64,000 bases of DNA from a virus (taxonomy: Duplodnaviria; Caudoviricetes). The notes under the pieces are model-generated. The model made no database searches, was not told where the DNA came from, and was given only the letters and a program-made list of their open reading frames with translations. The stretch is from the IMG/VR virus record IMGVR_UViG_3300031867_000022, positions 36,633 through 100,632 of that record; one strand, 5' to 3'. The translations under genes were made by a program, and so were the position numbers. Shown piece after piece: positions 2,607 to 27,971 of this stretch (position 1 is the stretch's first letter; each line of letters opens with the position of its first letter).

Positions 2607-3167
2607 TTATTGAGCTTCCTCAAGACTGTTTGTAGTCTCGCCGCTTGCTTCTGTTGCGGTCTCAGAGTTTGTAGGCTCGCCTTTTGTTTCCGGAAGACTC
2701 TGAGATCCCGTAGCCGCGCTGTATATTGTTTCGTTTCCAGTGGAACCATAACTGCCCTCTCCGCGTTCGGTTTCACTTAAAGTTTCAGATTCTTCAAACT
2801 GTACATCAGGAACTGGGAGAATGAGAATCTGTGCCATCCTTTCACCTTCTTTATATACAGAGGGTATAACATCAGTAGTAGAAACCATCTTTATAGTAAC
2901 CTCTCCTCTATAACCAGCATCTACTGTACCAGGAGCATTACATTGTCTAAGACTCTTCTTACTAATAGATGAACGAGGTACTATAGCTCCGTAATATCCT
3001 TCTGGGATTTCAAGCGCAAGGTCTGTATGATATACTAGAACAAGCTGTCCACACTCGTTAATCTCTGTTGTTATTCGTGTACAAGTTAAGTCAAATCCAG
3101 CATCCGTACTATGTGCTTTAGTAGGTGCGATTGCTTTATCTGAAAGTCTTTTAAATTTAATTACCAT
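2607..3167 (-). CDS. dut: dUTPase (trimeric type)
   Basis: Motifs AGFDL, PRSS, GTVDAGYRGE, RMAQ, RGEGSYGSTG; acidic low-complexity C-terminal tail. Confidence 0.95.
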   Translation of the reverse strand: MVIKFKRLSDKAIAPTKAHSTDAGFDLTCTRITTEINECGQLVLVYHTDLALEIPEGYYGAIVPRSSISKKSLRQCNAPGTVDAGYRGEVTIKMVSTTDVIPSVYKEGERMAQILILPVPDVQFEESETLSETERGEGSYGSTGNETIYSAATGSQSLPETKGEPTNSETATEASGETTNSLEEAQ

Positions 3168-3192
3168 AGTTTATATATAAAGTTAGTAATAG

Positions 3193-3267
3193 TGGTCGCC
3201 CCACCATCGAGTCGAACCCGGACCTGGAGGGTTAGAGCCTCCCGTGCTACCGCTACACCATGGAGCA
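3193..3267 (-). tRNA. Amber suppressor tRNA (anticodon CUA), Gln-like body
   Basis: TGCTCCA-TG-GTGT-AGCGGTA-GCAC-G-GGAGG-CTCTAAC-CCTCC-AGGT-CCGGG-TTCGACT-CGATGG-TGGGGCG-A-CCA. U1 start, encoded CCA, anticodon at 3235-3233, irregular T-stem. Confidence 0.9.
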
Positions 3268-3487
3268 GGTCCTAACCAGGGGAACGATCCCTGCAGTTTT
3301 GATATGCTGTGCCAACAGAAAGGACTCCAATCAACATTTTAACATTTTATGAAACACGTGGAATCGCAGGACCACGTAACCTGTATTGGCGCTCGTTCGC
3401 TGCTTGTTAGTTAGTCTTACGACCTTTCGCATACTATCCGCATTTCAGCGGCCATACGAGCCCTGAGCATTTGCTCCCGATGTTATT

Positions 3488-4853: not shown

Positions 4854-5270
4854 TTACTTCTTCAGGCTTTTGAGATGATTAAGCACCTTTACAAGATTGT
4901 TGAGTACTGTTGTGCGCTCAACCTTCAAGCATTCAGGAGCAGTTGACATATCTTCATCAATGTTATTGAGTTCATCTGTATACTTGTTATACAGTCTATC
5001 AATCTCATCAAAAACATTTACGAAGTTCTTAGACTTTGAACTTTCTGTGACTTCCTCAAGGTATCCCTCTTTAATGAGCTCCTTGGCATAGTCTTCAGAG
5101 ATTGAGAAGTTTGAGTTGTAAGTAGAACGAAGCTCACTGTCAGCATCGTCTGTCTTATGAAACTCCTCATTGTGTTCAAAAACATACATCTGTGTATCGT
5201 TATTGTACTCAAAAGTATCACCAATTTCCATAAACAGGAAAGAATCAGTTACACGTAATGTCTTTGCCAT
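4854..5270 (-). CDS. Hypothetical protein, first gene of leftward late operon
   Basis: 138-aa ORF just downstream of the promoter at 5302-5330. Confidence 0.8.
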   Translation of the reverse strand: MAKTLRVTDSFLFMEIGDTFEYNNDTQMYVFEHNEEFHKTDDADSELRSTYNSNFSISEDYAKELIKEGYLEEVTESSKSKNFVNVFDEIDRLYNKYTDELNNIDEDMSTAPECLKVERTTVLNNLVKVLNHLKSLKK

Positions 5271-5301
5271 TTGTTTAATTTTTATCGTTAATTTGCTGCA
5301 C

Positions 5302-5330
5302 TAACGTAGCAAAGTTGAATTTTGGTTGCA
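5302..5330 (-). promoter_or_regulatory. ECF-sigma-type promoter (leftward)
   Basis: Minus strand TGCAAC-N17-ACGTTA; same motif at 5354 and 36464. Confidence 0.7.
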
Positions 5331-5353
5331 AAAATAATAAAATTTTTTAAAAA

Positions 5354-5381
5354 TGCAACTTTTGTGCTGTTTTTCACGTTA
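5354..5381 (+). promoter_or_regulatory. ECF-sigma-type promoter (rightward)
   Basis: TGCAAC-N16-ACGTTA, back-to-back with the leftward copy. Confidence 0.7.
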
Positions 5382-5394
5382 TGTGACTGTACTT

Positions 5395-12003: not shown

Positions 12004-12064
12004 AATACTGTCGGGATGTAGATGTCCCCTGATGAGTCGTTGCAAATTACGACGAAACAGTATT
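12004..12064 (+). ncRNA. Type III hammerhead ribozyme
   Basis: Stem III AATACTG/CAGTATT, GUC triplet (cleavage after 12012), stem I GGGAT/GTCCC, core CTGATGA, stem II GTCGT/ACGAC, core GAAA. Confidence 0.9.
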
Positions 12065-14262: not shown

Positions 14263-14334
14263 GGTCTATTCGTCTATCGGTTAGGACGACAGATTTTCAT
14301 TCTGTAAAGAGCAGTTCGACTCTGCTATAGACTA
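14263..14334 (+). tRNA. tRNA-Glu (UUC)
   Basis: Acceptor GGTCTAT/ATAGACT, anticodon arm ACAGA-TTTTCAT-TCTGT, T-arm AGCAG-TTCGACT-CTGCT; no encoded CCA. Confidence 0.9.
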
Positions 14335-14354
14335 CAAACCACTAATTTAAAATT

Positions 14355-16998: not shown

Positions 16999-17175
16999 AT
17001 GAAGTACGAAAATTCTATGCATCGATTCTTTCAAGTTAGTAGCGGAGTTTCCCTTATTATAGCAGGTATAAGTATGCTAAAAGGCAATATGCAAGGTGCA
17101 ACATTTGGTGTGCTTTTGGCCATACACTTAAACATGCTATCTTGGAATTATGAAGATTACGATGAGGAAGAATAA
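16999..17175 (+). CDS. Small membrane protein (58 aa)
   Basis: MKYENSMHRFFQVSSGVSLIIAGISML...YDEEE-TAA. Confidence 0.5.
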   Translation: MKYENSMHRFFQVSSGVSLIIAGISMLKGNMQGATFGVLLAIHLNMLSWNYEDYDEEE

Positions 17176-17177
17176 GA

Positions 17178-17390
17178 AATCTTAGCGTGTCCCAGGATAA
17201 GTCGTTCGGACGGCGGTTCGATTCCGCCCAGGTCCACCTATATTAATAAATATGGGCTTGACTGGTTTAGACGGCGACAGAAAGTAAGACATCAAGCGCT
17301 TTGATATAAAAATTAAACGGCAACATAAACGTTGTTGACTACACGGGTCTCCAGGAGGCAGCGTGAAGTCGGTGAACCCTACCTAAGTGG
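17178..17390 (+). ncRNA. ssrA: Circularly permuted (two-piece) tmRNA; outer ends approximate
   Basis: The 3' acceptor part comes first (GGAC-GGCGG-TTCGATT-CCGCC-CAGGTCC-A-CC, 17208-17238), then an AT spacer, then the 5' part GGGCTTG-ACTGGTTTAGAC at 17254. Pairing gives G3-U70; P2 is GGCGAC/GTCGTT; tag ORF 17319-17366 reads GNINVVDYTGLQEAA-TGA. Confidence 0.88.
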
Positions 17391-17393
17391 GGA

Positions 17394-17450
17394 GAGTGAG
17401 TAGCGTTAATTCGCCCAGGTACAGGTGGGTTCGAATCCCACACTCACTCC
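17394..17450 (+). ncRNA. Anticodon-less tRNA-like element
   Basis: GAGTGAGT/ACTCACTC stem stacked on GTGGG-TTCGAAT-CCCAC T-arm; small GCG/CGC arm. Confidence 0.6.
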
Positions 17451-17539
17451 TACGTCGTGAGACGCATTAGACTGTCTTAAAGGATAGTCTCTTTCGTGAA
17501 TGGTAGGTGCAGGTGAAGTATAGTAGCCTGCACCGTAAT

Positions 17540-17722: not shown

Positions 17723-18214
17723 ATGAAAAAATCTGGATACAAGGAAATGTTGCGGGATAGATGTCCTGCAACAGTAAACTTTGCTCTTAAGTATTGCAAT
17801 GCTAAAGAGCGTTGGATTGATCATGCTTACAATCAATTTATAAAGATATATGTAGATAATAATGAACGTAAACATACTACTCGTATTATCCTCGGTATTG
17901 CAAAATATTACAGAAACTTTATATTTGATAAAAGCATCGATTGGGAGAATCTCACCAAAGAAGAAGAAGCCTATTGGAAATGGGTATCAGCTTGGGTGAG
18001 GTGGTTCATGAAGAACTTTGCGTATATAGAAAATACGTATAAGATCTCTCGCTCTTGTGGAAAAGATGAATTTGACTGTAAAGTTGAAATCATCCAGAAG
18101 CACTTAAGTTCAAAGCTTCCTACAGAAGACGATGATGAAGAAACAAAAGCAAAAAAGCTAAAAGAAGTAAATAAACTTACCGATTATCTCGTCAAATGTA
18201 TCAATGAAGTATAG
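17723..18214 (+). CDS. Hypothetical protein
   Basis: 163-aa ORF. Confidence 0.8.
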   Translation: MKKSGYKEMLRDRCPATVNFALKYCNAKERWIDHAYNQFIKIYVDNNERKHTTRIILGIAKYYRNFIFDKSIDWENLTKEEEAYWKWVSAWVRWFMKNFAYIENTYKISRSCGKDEFDCKVEIIQKHLSSKLPTEDDDEETKAKKLKEVNKLTDYLVKCINEV

Positions 18215-18653
18215 AATGTGCGTATTTTCCAATTATTTAGATCCTCTACGTGAGGAAAATCTGATTGCTCTAACGGACGATCCAAAGCCAAGTGAAGTTT
18301 ATGACGCGTTGCGTATCGCATACAATCAAGGCGCACCGGGTATATTAGACAACACACGTATGATCGCTCCAATTAACGAAGAAGAAGATAATTATGATAT
18401 TATAGAAGAAGTTTGGCGTAACAGTCATCTGCAATTCATAGTACGGTGGATAAATCGAAAGATTACACTGTGTATAGGCATAGAAACATATCGAACCTTG
18501 GGAGTTCGTGTAAGAATTGCAACCAGTATGATAAATAAACTGGTAAATGAAGGTTATTTATCCAAACGAATGTCTATGAGAATTCATAGTTATCTTTGTG
18601 AGAACGTACGGAATGAATCTTCTTTAGTAGTAAATGAAGAACTTCCGTTCTAG
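18204..18653 (+). CDS. Hypothetical protein ending in SSB-tail-like EELPF
   Basis: 149-aa ORF, TAG stop. Confidence 0.75.
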   Translation: MKYRMCVFSNYLDPLREENLIALTDDPKPSEVYDALRIAYNQGAPGILDNTRMIAPINEEEDNYDIIEEVWRNSHLQFIVRWINRKITLCIGIETYRTLGVRVRIATSMINKLVNEGYLSKRMSMRIHSYLCENVRNESSLVVNEELPF

Positions 18654-18780
18654 TATCAGGGCTGTCCCTCAGAGGTAGTCTTTGATGACAACAGCCCACA
18701 ACACAGCACCGTCTGTTATGTGAGTGACACACTAATAACCGGAACATAGTGCTAACGCACTATAGTTAATTTGTTTGATT

Positions 18781-19344
18781 ATGTCCAAGAATCCTAGAAT
18801 CACTTCAGAAGAAGTTGGGATAATCAAAAGAGCGCAAGCAGGTGATGAATCTGCTTTTAATATACTTTTTCACAAATACAAAGGATTTGTTGAGAATATA
18901 CTGTTTCAGTATATCAAGGATATGGATGAAGCCAAAGATATGGCTAATTTCGTCTTCTTAAAAGTATATAATAATCTCTCAAAGTTTACAAAGTACGACT
19001 CCTTCGGGGGTTGGCTAAGAATACTGACTAATCGAGTGGCAATCGACTATTTGCGTACAATGGAGAACAAACAAGTAGCACTTGGTGATGATGTAGGCCG
19101 ACTACCTACAAATGAAACAAGTAGCTCGTATGAAGACGAAATTGTCAATCGTCTAACATATAAGCAATTGCTAAGTGAGTTCAACAAGCTTTCAGAAGAT
19201 GCTCGTAAAATCTTCGAGCTGTACTATGAGAATCGAATGACAGTTGAAGAAATCAGTAAAGCGCTTCGAATCCCAACAGGAACTATTAAGTCAACGTTGT
19301 CAAGAACGCGTAAAAAGATTCAAAAACGTTTAAAAATTAATTAA
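18781..19344 (+). CDS. ECF-family sigma-70 factor
   Basis: Region 2 (AGDESAFNILFHKY...DEAKDMANFVFLKVY...FGGWLRILTNR..ID) and region 4 (MTVEEISKALRIPTGTIKSTLSRTRKKI). Confidence 0.92.
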   Translation: MSKNPRITSEEVGIIKRAQAGDESAFNILFHKYKGFVENILFQYIKDMDEAKDMANFVFLKVYNNLSKFTKYDSFGGWLRILTNRVAIDYLRTMENKQVALGDDVGRLPTNETSSSYEDEIVNRLTYKQLLSEFNKLSEDARKIFELYYENRMTVEEISKALRIPTGTIKSTLSRTRKKIQKRLKIN

Positions 19345-19345
19345 C

Positions 19346-19729
19346 ATGATGGACTTATTTCTGTTCGCTCTGATCGTGTTTGTTATTGGGTTGATAGCTC
19401 GCTACAACGAAAGTAACAAGCTCTTTTGGACACTGCTGACACCTTTTGTAGTGGCGTTCGCAGTAACGAAGATGGTCACAAAAGACTCATCTCCGAAACA
19501 GGATGAGACTGTCACTCTGCAGGTTAATCCCACACAGAGCGCTGTACTGACGTCAGATGCTTTTATGTATCTTTTGGCAGGCGATTCAGTGTCAGGAACC
19601 AAGAAGGCAACTTCACCCTCTGTGGGTAAGGATACCATTCCTGCAGCAAAGGACACGATCATCCCAAGTAAGGCCACGGTTAACACCCGTGACCAACCAA
19701 ACAAACAAAACTTTTTCGATACTTCATGA
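19346..19729 (+). CDS. Membrane protein (two N-terminal hydrophobic segments)
   Basis: Coupled to the sigma gene; an anti-sigma role is possible but unsupported. Confidence 0.7.
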   Translation: MMDLFLFALIVFVIGLIARYNESNKLFWTLLTPFVVAFAVTKMVTKDSSPKQDETVTLQVNPTQSAVLTSDAFMYLLAGDSVSGTKKATSPSVGKDTIPAAKDTIIPSKATVNTRDQPNKQNFFDTS

Positions 19730-21262: not shown

Positions 21263-21718
21263 ATGAAGCAGATTAATACGTTCCTGTGTTGCTTCTTTAT
21301 GGCATTAGCCGGTATCGGCTTTGCTATAGGAGTAAACAATGAGTCTACTAGCTCTAGCTACAAGACTGCGAACGCCGCCCCAGTCCTTAATTGGGCACAG
21401 GGTGTAACGTATCCACTTGATCTTCGTCTTACAGCGGAGAATAAGTACAAGAAAGACGATACTGAAGAACCCAGAGTCTTATATGACACAGTTTACGTAG
21501 AAAAGACTGTGTATAAGTATCGTAAGCACAAAGCTAAGTCTACAAAGCCACGTGCAAATAGCAAACGAAAGGGCAAGAGCACTCCAGCTATTGTTCCTGA
21601 TACTATTCCAAAGCCATTTGTAGATGTGGGTCGAGAGGAGAATCCCACAGACACTATTGGACCTTCTAAAGGATCCATTATCCTTGTTGTCGACGGCAAG
21701 GAAGTCTATAAGCGATAA
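21263..21718 (+). CDS. Membrane-anchored/secreted protein with basic patch
   Basis: N-terminal hydrophobic helix; KYRKHKAKSTKPRANSKRKGK. Confidence 0.8.
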   Translation: MKQINTFLCCFFMALAGIGFAIGVNNESTSSSYKTANAAPVLNWAQGVTYPLDLRLTAENKYKKDDTEEPRVLYDTVYVEKTVYKYRKHKAKSTKPRANSKRKGKSTPAIVPDTIPKPFVDVGREENPTDTIGPSKGSIILVVDGKEVYKR

Positions 21719-21719
21719 T

Positions 21720-23880
21720 TACTCCGGTGCGGGGGATAGACCAGGTCTGTCCCCCAGCCAGTTTGGCAGCACGTCAGCACGGTATAGATGGGTCTCATTA
21801 GCCCAGGTGGTGCGAAATATAATTTACTGGATCCGAGAATATGTTAGCCCTCTCAAAGGGTGAGAAACTCAAAAGGTAGGATGGAAGATCGCAAGTGTGA
21901 AAAGCTTGTGGATATTAGGGTAAGCGTTGTATCAACCCTATTCTGGTCCCTGAGAACCGTCTGGTGAGGGTAGTCAAGAGAAGACGCATAAGTCGCAAAA
22001 AGCGCAAAACGAACCGTATCGAAAGATTTAGATTTCGAGTGATACATAGATCTGAAATCACGTTACACGAGTTGAAACATTATAGTAAGCCAAAAACTAT
22101 AATGATGTATCAATTTACTTTAAGCTGTAGTCTAGTGTTCCACGCAATCCAGGGCGTGTATGAAGGGACGAACAATTACATGGAATAATATAAGCAATAT
22201 CATAAGGGTAATACTTATGAGGCGTACCGTAACTACGTCGCTTTTTCGAACCCTTGCTGTTCGATTCAGCACAGCTCCGTTGAAGGGGTAAGCCAGGGAT
22301 GAGGTATAGCTGATTGTGTTAGGAAATGTGACCGCCAGGCCTTAGTCGTTCATGCGGTATATAAAAGTAGAATGACATACTAGTCCGATGCAGGGATTAA
22401 ATGCGAAGTAGGGCCTAGAGGCTTGAAGGCTACGCGGATGAAGTGCGCGGTGAAACACTATTTCAAAAAGGGAAAGCTCGGTAAGCGGAGTATGTAAAAG
22501 AACCTAGCGTTAAGATGTACCGGAGGAAATGCCGGAGTCGAAGGATGACAACCTGACAGTCAAAACCAATTGTTTTAAAGTAGGTCGATTCAAAGCCTAT
22601 ACATTCCAGTATAGAGGAAGATCGCTTTCTTGTGCAGATAAAAGATAATATGAGATGTTACTGTTGTACTATATCAGCGAGAGTAGTAAACTCGTGTGCG
22701 GTATGACTTAACTATGGTCACTCATATGAAAATATATTGAAACGAAACAATTAGAGAGTATTAACATGTTTAACAAAATTGATGTTCCCAGCTGGTAGAA
22801 GAAATAAAGACAACTTTGTATGTATGCGCTATCACGTCTGGAGTTCGAGTGCCAACCGTTCCTGAGAAGCAAGTAGCAAGATGGGAAACTAAGCGAAGCA
22901 TAGACCGCAAATCTATGTGGGTGGATACCATGAAGCAATATACATGACAAATGAAGAAATTCAGATGCAAGGCAGCCTATCGTGAAACGAAGTATCACCT
23001 CCTTGTCTGGGAGGGGTAAAGCGACCAGGATGAACCTTATGTTTTATACATAAGTAGTAAAAATGGAAACCGAAGAAGCGAATCTTTAGGTGGGTGATAA
23101 ATCTAGATGTATGAGGTGGAATTCCTCCAGTATTCGTGCACTATAAACAATGAGGAAGTAAATCCAAGAGTAAAAACAACCGTACGTCCATGATGGGTTA
23201 TGGAGCCCTAGACAGTTCGACAACAAAAGCGTTCCTCTTCACGCAAATACCAATTAGTTATAAAGAACGAAGCCGGGTATTGATTGTTCTGACCGGAAAA
23301 AAGCATAGAACAGTGGCAGCTGTGCCTAATCAGTATCGCAAGACTGTACAACAGCAGAGTAGTTCAATCAGCTTATAGGGAAAATACGCTGAAGAATTAC
23401 GCAACTCTCATTTACGACCACAAACTGGGTTTAGTAAAACGTTCTACGAACATTAGTTGCGAAAGCAAAATTTTGCCAACGAACAAATGAAAACGCTCAG
23501 TTCATGAAAATTGAATATTAACATAGTTCCAAGTAATTTTATGTCTAATCACATAGTATCCAAGTTTGTACTTTTACTGAAGATAAAAGAATCCTCTAAT
23601 GACGGGCATGGATGATTCTACCGTTGAATCCCCGACAGATGAAACAGTGTTCGTGCTGTGTAATCTGTCTAGCTAGAGAAAACTTTATTAACAGCAAAAA
23701 CATTGCTCTCATGAGCACGCATAAAGATACAGAATAAGAAATTACCGAACACACGTTCATAGAGCCTTTGAGCCAGAACGCCACATTTCGAAACTCAAAG
23801 GTTACCCTCCCGCCAGAAGTGGAGGACATATTAATTCTTATCGTTAGTTAATCAATAACGATATCAAAAAGGATAAGAAA
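21720..23880 (+). ncRNA. Candidate very large structured non-coding RNA (~2.15 kb)
   Basis: No credible ORF (all under 100 aa) in a gene-dense genome; many hairpins, GNRA-type loops, a T-loop arm and long-range complementarities. Confidence 0.65.
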
Positions 23881-23883
23881 ACA

Positions 23884-24540
23884 ATGAAAACAATTGATGT
23901 AAACATCATGTCACCTGTTGTGACTAACAACGTCCAGCTGATCTCTAAGATTGGCTCGAATCTAGGTACTCAGTTTTGTAAGGTAGAATCTCGCTTCGCT
24001 TGGCAAGGTGGCCAGGAAGGCTTTGAGCGTGACAAAAAGGCCATCGAGAATGGTGAGAAGAAGGGATTCATCCTCAATCGTAGTCCAAAACGGTTACTTG
24101 CTAAGAATTTCCTTATTGCAGGCACCGTGTTGATGAAGGACCCGATGAACGACGACGAAGTAGGAATTGCAATCAACCCCCACGACGATGGCTCGTGCGA
24201 CTTGTTCCTCCCGATTACAGAGAATACTCTCAATACGATGGGCAAGACCACCGCAGAGGCTGTTGCAGAGGCTATCAAGGGTGAGCGTGACCACTTCTTC
24301 CTCGACGCCAAGACACTCGTAAAGATCCTGAACGACGCCATGCGCCGCGAGATTTCATATCTGGAGGAACACATTCAGACCTGTCAGAAGATGCTCGTAA
24401 CCCTCAAGGGTGACATCTCGAACAACGAGAACAAGGCAAAGATGATTGAGGATAGCTGGATCAACTCAGCGTTGAAGACCACGGTCGACATGCCTGGTGG
24501 TTCCGGTACAATAGTAACCGTCAACAAGACTGAGGACTAA
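23884..24540 (+). CDS. Hypothetical protein (218 aa, C-terminal coiled coil)
   Basis: Long ORF with biased codons. Confidence 0.85.
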   Translation: MKTIDVNIMSPVVTNNVQLISKIGSNLGTQFCKVESRFAWQGGQEGFERDKKAIENGEKKGFILNRSPKRLLAKNFLIAGTVLMKDPMNDDEVGIAINPHDDGSCDLFLPITENTLNTMGKTTAEAVAEAIKGERDHFFLDAKTLVKILNDAMRREISYLEEHIQTCQKMLVTLKGDISNNENKAKMIEDSWINSALKTTVDMPGGSGTIVTVNKTED

Positions 24541-25136: not shown

Positions 25137-25394
25137 TTGTGCTGCGGTACTTAGGTTTATACTATCGAGGTAGTTTAAACCAGCTTTTAGAAACAGATAT
25201 AAAGATGACACTTAGTCTTATTTGAAGATGTATTTTTCATAAACTTATCCCATATAGCACCTGCGGGTGTTTGGAAGGCTAGAGCTGCGGCTCTACCTTC
25301 CAGGGGGTATTTTTAGTCTATAGAGGTGCGATTCCACTATAGATTACGTAGGTAGATGTTATTCGAGGTTAGTACTAACTTAAATCAAACGCAC

Positions 25395-25931
25395 ATGACG
25401 AAATCAATTAAGTTTAATCCGAAGAACATCATTAAGACTCGCGAGGAGATTACAACAAAGAAGCATGATTACTGGATGAATATCCGTACTACTAATTTGC
25501 TCTCAGCGAAGCAGGCCAGTATGCGAAAGTACGACCTAAAGGCTCTGTATAATGAGATTATGCAGATGTCAGAGAAGCTCGTCTATATTAAGGGCGCACT
25601 TGCTGCAATCAATAATGGCGAGACGACATTCGATAAAGAAGCATTCAAGAAAACAAATAACTATAATATCTTTATGGCCACCGAGTATAACGAGGCCATT
25701 GCTCAGCTGAAGATGGTTCCTACTATCGATCCTGCAACAAAGTCTAAGAAGGGCGGTGCTGCAAAGATGGGTAAGAATGAGGTGTTTACATCTGCAAAGA
25801 TTGCATCTCTGATTAAGGAGCTTAATCTTAAGGCTCTGACATTTAAGAATAATATGGAGGAGTTCAACTCTAAGACGGAGATTGATATTTCTTCTATTTC
25901 TGATATGTTTAAGCAGGAGCTTACAGTATAG
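25395..25931 (+). CDS. Hypothetical protein (MTKSIKF start)
   Basis: ORF 25356-25931; ATG 25395 has the better A-rich context. Confidence 0.8.
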   Translation: MTKSIKFNPKNIIKTREEITTKKHDYWMNIRTTNLLSAKQASMRKYDLKALYNEIMQMSEKLVYIKGALAAINNGETTFDKEAFKKTNNYNIFMATEYNEAIAQLKMVPTIDPATKSKKGGAAKMGKNEVFTSAKIASLIKELNLKALTFKNNMEEFNSKTEIDISSISDMFKQELTV

Positions 25932-25939
25932 ATATTATA

Positions 25940-25984
25940 AGGTTAGTTCGCATGGGATATGGGGTTCGAATCCTCTCTAACCTA
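25940..25984 (+). ncRNA. Anticodon-less tRNA-like element
   Basis: AGGTTAG/CTAACCT stem, GGGG-TTCGAAT-CCTC T-arm, then A-CAA. Confidence 0.55.
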
Positions 25985-26128
25985 CAAAGAAATAGCGCAT
26001 AAAACTGCCGTTTAAGCCGTTTATTTCCCTTTGACGATTAACTATACCACCCCTAGCGCTAGAGTGGCTCAGATCGCCTTAAAATGGCTTTAAACGCAAT
26101 AGTTTTAACCCTCTAAACTGTTATCAAA

Positions 26129-26515
26129 ATGGCTAAAGAGAAAACATTACGACAGGAAGACCTGCCAAAGCTCCGTAAGACTGTATTTTATGACGGAGAG
26201 AAAGAGAGAAAAGAAAATCGTGCTGCTAACAAGCATCGTAAATATAGAGTAAAGCGTATATGGAATGCCGAAACTCAGAAGTATGAGAAGGTAAAGGTGT
26301 ATAAGCAAAGTACTACATTTACCAGAAAGGAGATGAAGGAACGCTTTAACACAAAGCACGTTGACATAGTGGTAATAAAGAAAACACCACCAGCACCAGT
26401 AGTCCATGCCAAGACTATAAACATAAAGCCTGTAACTCACCATTACATAGGAATTGAGTACAGACAGCGTCTTGACTGGGATTCTAAAACGCTTACTTAC
26501 AAAGCAGCAGCATAG
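26129..26515 (+). CDS. Highly basic protein ending -AAA
   Basis: 128-aa K/R-rich ORF. Confidence 0.8.
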   Translation: MAKEKTLRQEDLPKLRKTVFYDGEKERKENRAANKHRKYRVKRIWNAETQKYEKVKVYKQSTTFTRKEMKERFNTKHVDIVVIKKTPPAPVVHAKTINIKPVTHHYIGIEYRQRLDWDSKTLTYKAAA

Positions 26516-26539
26516 TATTAACTTAAAAACATTATCAAA

Positions 26540-27340
26540 ATGAGTAAGAAGAATTTTAAGGTGGCAACGACCGAAGACGGTAAGACCCCAAAGCAAAATA
26601 CATCAAAAACAGATCATATCTTTGCAACAGCAAAGATTACAAAGAATAAAACTCCAACCGGTAAGGTTAAGAAGATAGAAGATACTAAGAAGCGTCGCGA
26701 AGCACGTGAAGAACAGTATCGTCAGTTCCGTATCAAGGCACTTATTCGTCGAGGACAACGTATGAAGCTTCCAGAGCAAGAGATAGAAGACTTGAAGAAG
26801 CTTCTGATCAAGCAGATGGATGAACCGAAGCAGTATACTATACTATGTCTATTCCCGACTAAGTCTCCGACAAAGAAAGGCGAGGCATCTATAGCCAATC
26901 TTGCTAAGCAGGCTATCCTGAATAGTAAGATAGAATACAAGCTACTCACCGATACGTACGCCTACATTATTGGCGATGAGAAGGTTCTCGCTAAACTGCG
27001 TGAGATTCTTCCAGAAGGCGTAACTATTCACCCGCATGCAAAGAAGCAAGCTTCTGTATTCAACATAGTAGACAAGCCGAAGCAGGAAAAGAAGCCTTCT
27101 AATAACAATAAGAATGTAGCTGCCAAAGCTAAGGCTGCTCGTAAGGCTGCCAAGTTGGCATACTACATCGATCGTCCTAACCACAAACGAGCAGGTAAAA
27201 AGGCACGCCGTGTAGAAAAGAATATAAAGCTTTCTGAGCGTCGAAATGCCCGCAAGGCTAAGATTGTCCAGGCTGTAAATAAAAAGCCGTCAGAGAGCCT
27301 TAAAAAGGCCTCTAAGAGCAATATGAAACAAGCAGCATAG
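26540..27340 (+). CDS. Highly basic protein ending -QAA
   Basis: 266-aa K/R-rich ORF. Confidence 0.85.
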   Translation: MSKKNFKVATTEDGKTPKQNTSKTDHIFATAKITKNKTPTGKVKKIEDTKKRREAREEQYRQFRIKALIRRGQRMKLPEQEIEDLKKLLIKQMDEPKQYTILCLFPTKSPTKKGEASIANLAKQAILNSKIEYKLLTDTYAYIIGDEKVLAKLREILPEGVTIHPHAKKQASVFNIVDKPKQEKKPSNNNKNVAAKAKAARKAAKLAYYIDRPNHKRAGKKARRVEKNIKLSERRNARKAKIVQAVNKKPSESLKKASKSNMKQAA

Positions 27341-27353
27341 AAAGGAGGTAGCT

Positions 27354-27971
27354 ATGATACGTAAAAAGAAAATTTGGCGCAGAAAATATGCAGCAACTGC
27401 AGCCAGAGACCGCCAGTTCACCGTTAAGAATACAAAGAAGAACATCGGTATAGACGATGATCGCGAGTATTGTGACTGGAAATTGAAGAAGAGCCCTCAG
27501 CCAAAAGAATGGGCTGTTCATGTAGATCCCAAGAAGATGAATCGTGTAGAATACATGGAGAAGCTAACTCAGCATAAGCTGGCTAAGTGGGAGCGGAAAC
27601 ACCCTAAGCCATGTAAAGATGATGATCTTTTCAAAGAGGAAATGATACCTCTATGGGAGAATGAACGTAGAAGAGCTGAGGAACGTTTGAGAGACTTCGT
27701 CGTCTCGATATACGACAAATTGCCGTTAATAGGTCGCTTCGAACAGAAGAAAGACGGAATGGCAACATATCAAGATAAGAAAGTAGCTGATCTCAAAGAT
27801 GAAAACGGTGATGGTCATCGCGTCAATGAGATTAGTGTAGATTCTAAACTTGTAAAGAAGGCCCAAAAGATAACAAATAAGGTACACGCTAAACATGCAA
27901 ACCTTGTTTGTACTAATCTGAAGGATCATAAGCGGCAAAAAGGCAGGATAATCTTGCCTCAAGCAGCTTAG
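27354..27971 (+). CDS. Basic protein ending -QAA
   Basis: 205-aa ORF. Confidence 0.85.
   Translation: MIRKKKIWRRKYAATAARDRQFTVKNTKKNIGIDDDREYCDWKLKKSPQPKEWAVHVDPKKMNRVEYMEKLTQHKLAKWERKHPKPCKDDDLFKEEMIPLWENERRRAEERLRDFVVSIYDKLPLIGRFEQKKDGMATYQDKKVADLKDENGDGHRVNEISVDSKLVKKAQKITNKVHAKHANLVCTNLKDHKRQKGRIILPQAA

Follow-up and report, generated by a model that had tools for sequence, protein, structure and literature searches.

We have analysed a 64-kb stretch of DNA (64,000 nucleotides (nt), hereafter "the window"), which corresponds to bases 36633-100632 of a virus record that is 100,632 bp long and has direct terminal repeats, and have found that the region at positions 21719-23883 (hereafter "the element") is very probably a conserved locus for structured RNA, as judged from the sequences of the window and its relatives. 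Sequence similarity places the window in a gut crAss-like phage from the delta group (close to Oafivirinae within Suoliviridae): the closest named DNA relatives are the crAss-like phages cr273_1 and cr272_1 (Buhlduvirus), followed by cr130_1, cr131_1, cr124_1, cr7_1 and a Bohxovirus, and the taxonomy lines of all those records read Crassvirales, Suoliviridae, Oafivirinae (i.e. the "delta" group). The explanation that we prefer as a whole, and that we consider reasonably probable, is that the element is a gene, or a tight gene cluster, for a structured non-coding RNA (ncRNA) of the Suoliviridae, which would be read from the + strand and, by analogy with other large phage RNAs, would act as a scaffold.

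Non-coding character, conservation and base-pair covariation

The initial annotation of this DNA, made from the window alone, had described the region as the longest stretch that is free of open reading frames (ORFs), and this description holds: the 2165 nt of the element are the window's longest run that contains no ORF of at least 100 amino acids (aa). The stop codons TAA, TAG and TGA are each present in all six frames, and the longest frame that is obtained when any one stop is reassigned measures 381 nt on the + strand and 567 nt on the - strand. A six-frame check under table 15, which had been suggested together with the annotation, opens no long conserved ORF; with TAG read through, the longest open frame has 117 codons (+) or 111 codons (-). 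Across 28 relatives, stop-to-stop frames of at least 70 aa vary in place, frame and strand, and no frame in the element is conserved under other genetic codes. The sense strand is indeed purine-rich (57%), as had been noted, but the neighbouring coding DNA is skewed likewise. No repeats, tandem repeats or iterons occur inside the element, and its only matches elsewhere in the 100.6-kb genome are chance 12-15-mers, with no paralogue or extended complementarity. Sigma-70-type promoters and intrinsic terminators are found in the window at or below shuffle expectation, and the same sigma-70-type scan has found no recognisable promoter at the 5' end of the element.

Hypothetical proteins of 146-168 aa are annotated on the antisense strand inside the element in the GenBank records of the Bohxovirus PV686213, cr7_1 and cr113_1. 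Stop codons are rare on a pyrimidine-rich antisense strand such as this one, and these proteins are most likely spurious, i.e. artefacts of that composition, because their frames are not conserved among the relatives.

The element is conserved in its place as well as in its length. A gap of 2.0-2.2 kb lies between the same flanking genes in every Oafivirinae record examined, and a two-motif core pattern matches at least 104 IMG/VR contigs, most of them of ~100 kb; in the 56 loci that contain the whole element, 1991-2238 nt separate the 5' motif from the 3' motif. Seven nhmmer profile blocks distributed across the element are colinear in 111 of the 111 loci that have any of them; every block that the flanks allow is held by 91 of these loci, and most of the other twenty are without one short, weak block only. 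Syntenic gaps also occur in two further subfamilies, namely in cr113_1 (Loutivirinae, 2147 nt) and cr50_1 (Boorivirinae, 2514 nt), where the Oafivirinae profile detects colinear homology (E = 2e-12 and 1e-4 in Loutivirinae; E = 3e-7 in Boorivirinae); the 5' domain at 21778-21971 is the part that is still recognisable in both (E = 2e-12 and 3e-7, respectively). By these comparisons the element is restricted to the crAss-like phages of the Suoliviridae. A scan of 596 Gb of bacterial genomes with the core pattern has returned 81 matches, 77 of which are chance matches, while the four real ones are phage contigs that had been binned into metagenome-assembled genomes (MAGs).

Sequence comparison further indicates that the element is better conserved than the adjoining proteins: 28 copies are 52-68% identical to the window and retain several hundred invariant columns, and the 461-aa protein encoded upstream is just 25-31% identical among the same phages. 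Conservation along the element is even (0.6-0.8) from 21750 to 23250, falls to 0.34-0.40 in a linker of ~100 nt and resumes in the 3' block. Peripheral hairpins are gained and lost between lineages around the conserved core. An insertion of this region, a hairpin of ~90 nt with the conserved sequence CAUGGUAUGG, is present in most relatives at ~22085 and is absent from the window.

The comparison of orthologous intervals, by which the initial annotation had proposed to look for covariation, has revealed a strong signal. The consensus structure that RNAalifold predicts from 28 representatives, none more than 97% identical to another, comprises 322 pairs at -383 kcal/mol, compared with -110 to -125 for three column-shuffled alignments; compensatory double changes occur in 171 of the 322 pairs, as against 69-76 in the column shuffles and 77-89 after a shift of the 3' partner by 1-3 columns, and canonical pairing across the 28 copies amounts to 91% versus 35-43% in the controls. 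All three thirds of the element lie significantly above shuffles: pairs with changes on both sides number 71 in the 5' third (21760-22580; 49.5 +/- 3.0 in per-pair shuffles, none of 300 reaching the observed value), 67 in the middle third (44.9; none of 300) and 24 in the 3' part (23340-23890; 19.2 +/- 1.9, with two of 300 shuffles reaching), where a count of cells gives 155 versus 46 (none of 300). At 22570-23200 alone, 32 of 59 pairs have changed on both sides, versus 21.0 +/- 2.0 in shuffles (none of 500) and 8-20 with slid partners.

The signal also extends to the four local hairpins that had been named from the single sequence, all of which are present, are kept in the relatives and carry compensatory changes, with canonical shares of 81% (21731-21755), 85% (22200-22220), 93% (22255-22271) and 92% (23457-23468). 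In the first of these, the compensatory changes are restricted to the closest lineage, and other lineages have a different hairpin at that place; the flank around it (21719-21777) would be either the end of the transcript of the upstream gene or the start of the RNA. The third hairpin, TGCTG-TTCGATT-CAGCA, fits the T-arm pattern G-TTCRANN-C, with compensatory types in four of its five pairs. A whole tRNA or cloverleaf at this position was considered and rejected: neither ARAGORN nor Rfam calls one, and the hairpin that comes next does not correspond to an acceptor strand. ARAGORN finds no tRNA anywhere in the element, nor does the Rfam tRNA model match it at E<=10.

With respect to the strand, the forward consensus fold is more stable than that of the reverse complement (-383 versus -332), and the 192 pairs that are predicted on both strands contain 178 G-U cells versus 111 A-C cells, which suggests, with good confidence, an RNA that is read from the + strand.

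One RNA or several, and the rival explanations

In order to separate real helices from chance pairing as a function of span, antiparallel runs of at least four well-paired, covarying columns have been set against parallel runs, whose orientation excludes a helix. At spans below 200 nt the antiparallel runs prevail (10 versus 0 at a summed covariation of at least 2.5, and 25 versus 11 at one of at least 1.5). The two long-range matches that the initial annotation had listed (21721 with 22531, and 22308 with 23365) pair in 46% and 42% of cells across the 28 relatives, which is the background level, and are thus due to chance. The best long-range candidate of our own, 22201-22208/23405-23412, has been rejected too, as it is displaced by a strongly covarying local hairpin. 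Since the long-range helices stay at the null level and those of the central block are invariant, the element would be a chain of local domains of up to ~160 nt, rather than a global fold.

By sequence comparison, some 45-65 maintained local helices, in domains of up to ~160 nt, are set among invariant unpaired and hairpin blocks, including two T-loop-type hairpins, and the blocks always occur together, in the same order and at a nearly constant total length. In our preferred explanation, the element would be transcribed as one long early or middle RNA, the transcript either continuing from the sigma-factor operon that precedes it or starting just before 21786, and ending at the hairpin near 23807-23826. 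Such an RNA would be a stable scaffold that assembles by itself or with proteins of the phage or the host, in the way supposed for the GOLLD and ROOL RNAs, and would act neither as a ribozyme, nor as an antisense regulator, nor as a coding region; this scaffold role, in early or middle infection, is one that we infer by analogy. The strict co-occurrence and order of the blocks, their tight length and the lack of a recurrent internal terminator-like hairpin speak in favour of a single unit: among the 28 copies, terminator-like hairpins within the element form a positional cluster only at 23800-23824 (in nine copies). A terminator-like site at 22221-22239 of the window was set aside, as it is not conserved among the relatives. 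We lean slightly towards one continuous transcript, and we regard one molecule with a single global architecture as doubtful; likewise, it seems rather unlikely that either the 1.5 kb on the 5' side or all 2.0 kb make up one RNA with a single large architecture or a self-assembled particle.

Several results weigh against the preferred explanation, or against parts of it. Antiparallel runs are no commoner than parallel ones at spans of 200-600 nt (11 versus 12) and above 600 nt (19 versus 20), and both long-range helices of the central block are without any variation; in view of this lack of support for a single fold, separate RNAs in a string account for the data just as well. The strand signal is of moderate strength, and the cells behind it lack phylogenetic independence. 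The window sequence by itself does not bear out the dense stems that had been claimed for it: the minimum-free-energy z-score at 21780-22779 is -0.38, versus -1.29 for an equally long coding control, and perfect inverted 8- to 11-mers show no excess over shuffles (29 versus 39; 4 versus 9). For GOLLD, ROOL and OLE RNAs, the criterion taken from Kretsch et al. (bioRxiv 10.1101/2024.12.08.627333) is homo-oligomeric assembly via kissing loops, with palindromic loops that covary. Covarying palindromic loops of this kind, the mark of self-assembly in GOLLD and OLE, have not been found in the hairpins of the element, where the only frequent loop palindromes are the T-loop UCGA and an invariant UAUAUA. 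Finally, the scaffold function is drawn from analogy only.

Among the rivals, the one that we take most seriously, and that we hold possible but rather unlikely, is a tandem string of independent structured RNAs of 100-400 nt each, which would be syntenic and either processed from a common precursor or transcribed separately. It is in accordance with the local nature of all well-supported helices (domains of at most 160 nt), the hypervariable, unpaired linker at 23250-23345, the peripheral hairpins that come and go between lineages, and the restriction of recognisable homology in the distant subfamilies to some of the blocks; but the blocks are never apart or reordered in the 111 loci, the total length is tightly kept, and neither a recurrent internal terminator-like site nor any copy of the regulatory 5-N3-5 motif (see below) precedes 23762. 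The annotation's proposal of "a new class of large ncRNA, or several in tandem" has fared well as regards a non-coding, covarying element of conserved place and length that belongs to no Rfam family, but not as regards one RNA of ~2.15 kb held together by its long-range pairs, which are chance.

We consider it improbable that the element is a very long structured untranslated region (UTR), i.e. a 3' UTR of the sigma operon or a 5' leader of the downstream operon that acts in cis on mRNA stability, processing or translation. The strand that it shares with both neighbours, the lack of a recognisable promoter at its 5' end, and the regulon motif, terminator-like hairpin and near-invariant hairpin abutting the start codon in its last 120 nt would all suit a UTR; against this, 2 kb with invariant blocks and more than 160 covarying pairs is far beyond known bacterial and phage leaders, the leader-like features are restricted to 23762-23883, and the RNA evolves far more slowly than the proteins on either side. 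Less probable still is a role at the level of the DNA, for example as an origin of replication or a site of packaging, with hairpins that would form in single-stranded DNA: the position just upstream of the replication module, a change of the local GC skew at ~23200 and the direct-repeat motif at 23762, which is clustered in another ORF-free island, are compatible with it, but the element is far larger than known origins, iterons and tandem repeats are lacking inside, G-U-type pairs are preferentially tolerated on one strand, and T-loop and GNRA-type hairpins are RNA motifs. Virtually no weight can be given to hidden or decayed protein-coding DNA or to a self-splicing intron; the antisense ORFs in three GenBank records are what would speak for coding DNA, but those frames are unconserved in place and frame on a strand where stops are rare, and an intron is at odds with the lack of any group I or group II model match and with the flanking ORFs, which are complete, separate genes in every lineage.

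Map of the element, its 3' boundary and its genomic surroundings

The positions of the structural elements are listed in Table 1. The linker separates a 5' block of 1.5 kb from a 3' block of 0.4 kb. The helix that closes the domain at 21983-22139 is listed as a candidate only, because its variation is limited to G-U changes.

Table 1. Structural and regulatory features of the element and related positions; values in parentheses after a feature are conservation scores.
Feature	Position	Strand	Details
5' flank, poorly conserved (0.43)	21719..21777	+	11-bp hairpin 21731-21755 directly after upstream stop codon
5' domain, best conserved (0.74-0.81)	21778..21971	+	helices with 2-7 compensatory pairs each
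5' domain hairpins	21778-21810, 21831-21882 (nested 21844-21866), 21889-21911, 21916-21941, 21947-21971	+	
Domain	21983..22139	+	closed by 21983-21987/22135-22139 (candidate); holds 21992-22005, 22014-22071 (nested 22027-22056)
Multi-hairpin region	22142..22294	+	22142-22158, 22201-22219, 22255-22271, 22274-22291; 4-5 compensatory pairs per hairpin
Conserved 7-nt loop GRUAAUA	hairpin 22201-22219	+	
T-loop hairpin	22255-22271	+	loop G-UUCGAUU-C
Domain	22295..22566	+	22295-22416 (nested 22334-22409), hairpins 22433-22449, 22476-22491, 22542-22566
10-bp stem with invariant loop	22345-22376	+	nested in 22295-22416
Central block	22584..23240	+	long nested hairpin 22645-22740; 22764-22785, 22788-22841, 22898-22918, 23038-23056, 23186-23213
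Invariant hairpin GAGUGCCAACCG	22846-22858	+	in central block
Invariant stem GUGGGUGA.../...UUCGUGCAC	23093-23142	+	T-loop-like hairpin cap 23107-23133
Hypervariable linker, largely unpaired (0.34-0.40)	23250..23345	+	gap fraction 0.3-0.5, paired fraction 0-0.08
3' block, fewer pairs	23344..23701	+	23344-23359, 23408-23449, 23450-23476, 23541-23554, 23571-23701 (encloses 23604-23633, 23634-23670)
GAAA tetraloop hairpin	23457-23468	+	inside 23450-23476
GARYC-N3-GARYC copies	16710, 16798, 18789, 23762, 28074, 29964, 31986, 32743, 33923, 38039	+	
GAGCC-TTT-GAGCC copy	23762..23774	+	fixed 113 nt before invariant box preceding next gene
Hairpin, terminator-like in a third of relatives	23807-23826	+	9/28 copies
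Near-invariant inverted repeat and box ATCGTTA…TAACGAT ATCAAAAAGGAT	23836-23878	+	ends 5 nt before ATG at 23884
Antisense ORFs annotated in extracted loci	PV686213 4264-4770, cr7_1 2826-3308, cr113_1 4948-5385	-	

The 3' end of the element is marked by a direct repeat of the form 5-N3-5, which reads GARYC-N3-GARYC in the window phage and occurs there in ten copies on the + strand and none on the - strand, compared with 0.4 expected by chance. Most copies are located 6-33 nt before the starts of replication genes, and the others in an ORF-free island and at the start of the sigma gene; within the element, no copy precedes the one at 23762. In one lineage the same site reads GTATC-TTC-GTATC, and GTATC-N3-GTATC is found again at four places in an ORF-free island upstream and at one gene start; in a third lineage the site reads GAGCC-TAA-GAGCC and is used likewise. 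Since the half-sites change in concert within a genome, the repeat is recognisable as a lineage-specific element, by its sequence pattern a putative promoter or operator, and the copy at 23762 is probably the recognition site of a phage factor rather than a part of the fold. The near-invariant hairpin at 23836-23878 has a 14-bp stem that is 100% canonical, with three compensatory pairs. The motif at 23762, the hairpin at 23807-23826 and this near-invariant hairpin, taken together, suggest that 23762-23883 lies outside the fold and serves as a regulatory end or a leader. In appearance, the final ~120 nt are a regulatory leader for the following gene, and 23800-23883 is likely where the RNA ends, the leader or operator of that gene, or both.

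All genes next to the element are on the + strand. Upstream of it are located an extracytoplasmic function (ECF) sigma factor (18775-19729, +; Pfam Sigma70_r2, r4 and ECF matches), a 127-aa protein with two transmembrane (TM)-like segments, the 461-aa protein mentioned above and a 151-aa protein with one TM-like segment. The 127-aa protein is encoded directly 3' of the sigma gene, which is the usual place of an anti-sigma factor. The upstream context is as initially described, but the very basic proteins that had been placed immediately downstream are not there: the isoelectric points (pI) of the proteins just downstream are 5.5, 8.2 and 9.4, and proteins of pI 10 begin 2.2 kb further on. Except for the ECF sigma factor, no family has been recognised by Pfam and PHROGs among ten flanking proteins. 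The AlphaFold2 model of the conserved downstream 218-aa protein, of moderate confidence (pLDDT 75.7), has a beta-rich domain and a long helix; it has no Foldseek match in the PDB at E<=0.001 and, therefore, offers no functional hint.

Further RNA features have been noted in the window. A permuted, two-piece transfer-messenger RNA (tmRNA) gene is located at 17144-17457 (+; Rfam tmRNA_permuted, 71.1 bits; the tag predicted by ARAGORN ends in AA), and a tmRNA gene of the same kind lies upstream of the element in two relatives. An intergenic match to Hammerhead_3, the type III hammerhead ribozyme, occurs in the early arm at 12005-12063 (+; 49.8 bits versus a gathering score of 48.5). A tRNA with the anticodon CUA (3193-3267, -), i.e. 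an amber suppressor that ARAGORN labels tRNA-Pyl, accompanies many early genes near the element that have TAG stops (17723-18214, 18204-18653 and four consecutive ORFs at 25356-27971, three of them very basic), which suggests stage-dependent read-through of TAG, as described for crAss-like phages (PMC7886860). Two whole-phage contigs of ~101 kb that carry the element have been binned into MAGs of Segatella (Prevotella) copri, a weak hint that this species is the host of the phage lineage. We know of no cultured phage of the Suoliviridae.

Significance and comparison with known RNAs

Few viruses of the human and animal gut are as common as the Suoliviridae (delta crAss-like phages), and most of the early genes of this family lack an assigned function. 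About 2% of each genome is devoted to the element, and an RNA that is better conserved than the adjoining proteins suggests that infection involves an important step based on RNA that is still unexplored. If the element is one molecule, it would surpass in size every structured non-ribosomal RNA known from phages, GOLLD by a factor of 2-3, and one of the most abundant families of human gut phages would carry it, with a role in host takeover; it would extend the size range of the "ornate" phage RNAs about threefold and would be an obvious target for cryogenic electron microscopy. If it is a string of modules, a whole set of new structured RNA domains, among them T-loop modules, would be available in compact form. 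In both cases, the element deserves an annotation as RNA, at a place where several GenBank records have a hypothetical minus-strand protein.

As far as sequence models can tell, the element matches no catalogued RNA family. A cmscan search of 21500-24000 with all 4227 families of Rfam 15, as had been proposed, has returned no match at E<=10, intron models included, and the elements of 12 relatives have none at the gathering score. The earlier statement that no group I, group II or RNase P signature is present agrees with this search, in which no group I or group II intron, RNase P or rRNA model matches; a group I or group II intron has been rejected as an identity of the element, also in view of the complete, separate flanking genes. 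We have found no description of the element in the open-access literature, where Yutin et al. 2021 mention only regions where short ORFs run in both directions, mainly in the zeta group (PMC7886860).

The covariance models of GOLLD, ROOL and OLE likewise have no match, either in the window (E<=10) or in the 12 relatives (gathering score). Like GOLLD and ROOL, the element belongs to a phage, is large and is divided into several domains rich in covarying helices and conserved loops, and its genome also has tRNA and tmRNA genes. It differs from them in size (2.0-2.2 kb, compared with just over 800 nt for GOLLD and ~580 nt for ROOL) and in its occurrence in Crassvirales of Bacteroidota. For GOLLD, the expected setting is a phage or prophage location next to tRNA genes; the element is phage-encoded, with the nearest tRNA (14263-14335) and the tmRNA located 4-7 kb upstream instead of being adjacent. 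OLE RNA, of about 600 nt and from Bacillota, is a membrane-associated ribonucleoprotein. It forms a homodimer (Kretsch et al., bioRxiv 10.1101/2024.12.08.627333). The membrane-associated ribonucleoprotein that the initial annotation had put forward as a speculative possibility is modelled on OLE. The element resembles OLE as a large structured RNA with small membrane-type proteins encoded nearby; however, it is phage-borne and OLE is chromosomal, and the proteins encoded next to it have no family or fold match to the partners of OLE. Unlike a group II intron, the element interrupts no gene and is without an intron-encoded protein or a domain-V-like signature; with group II introns, as with ribosomal RNA and RNase P RNA, it shares its size range, an organisation into domains with variable peripheral hairpins around invariant blocks, and T-loop modules.

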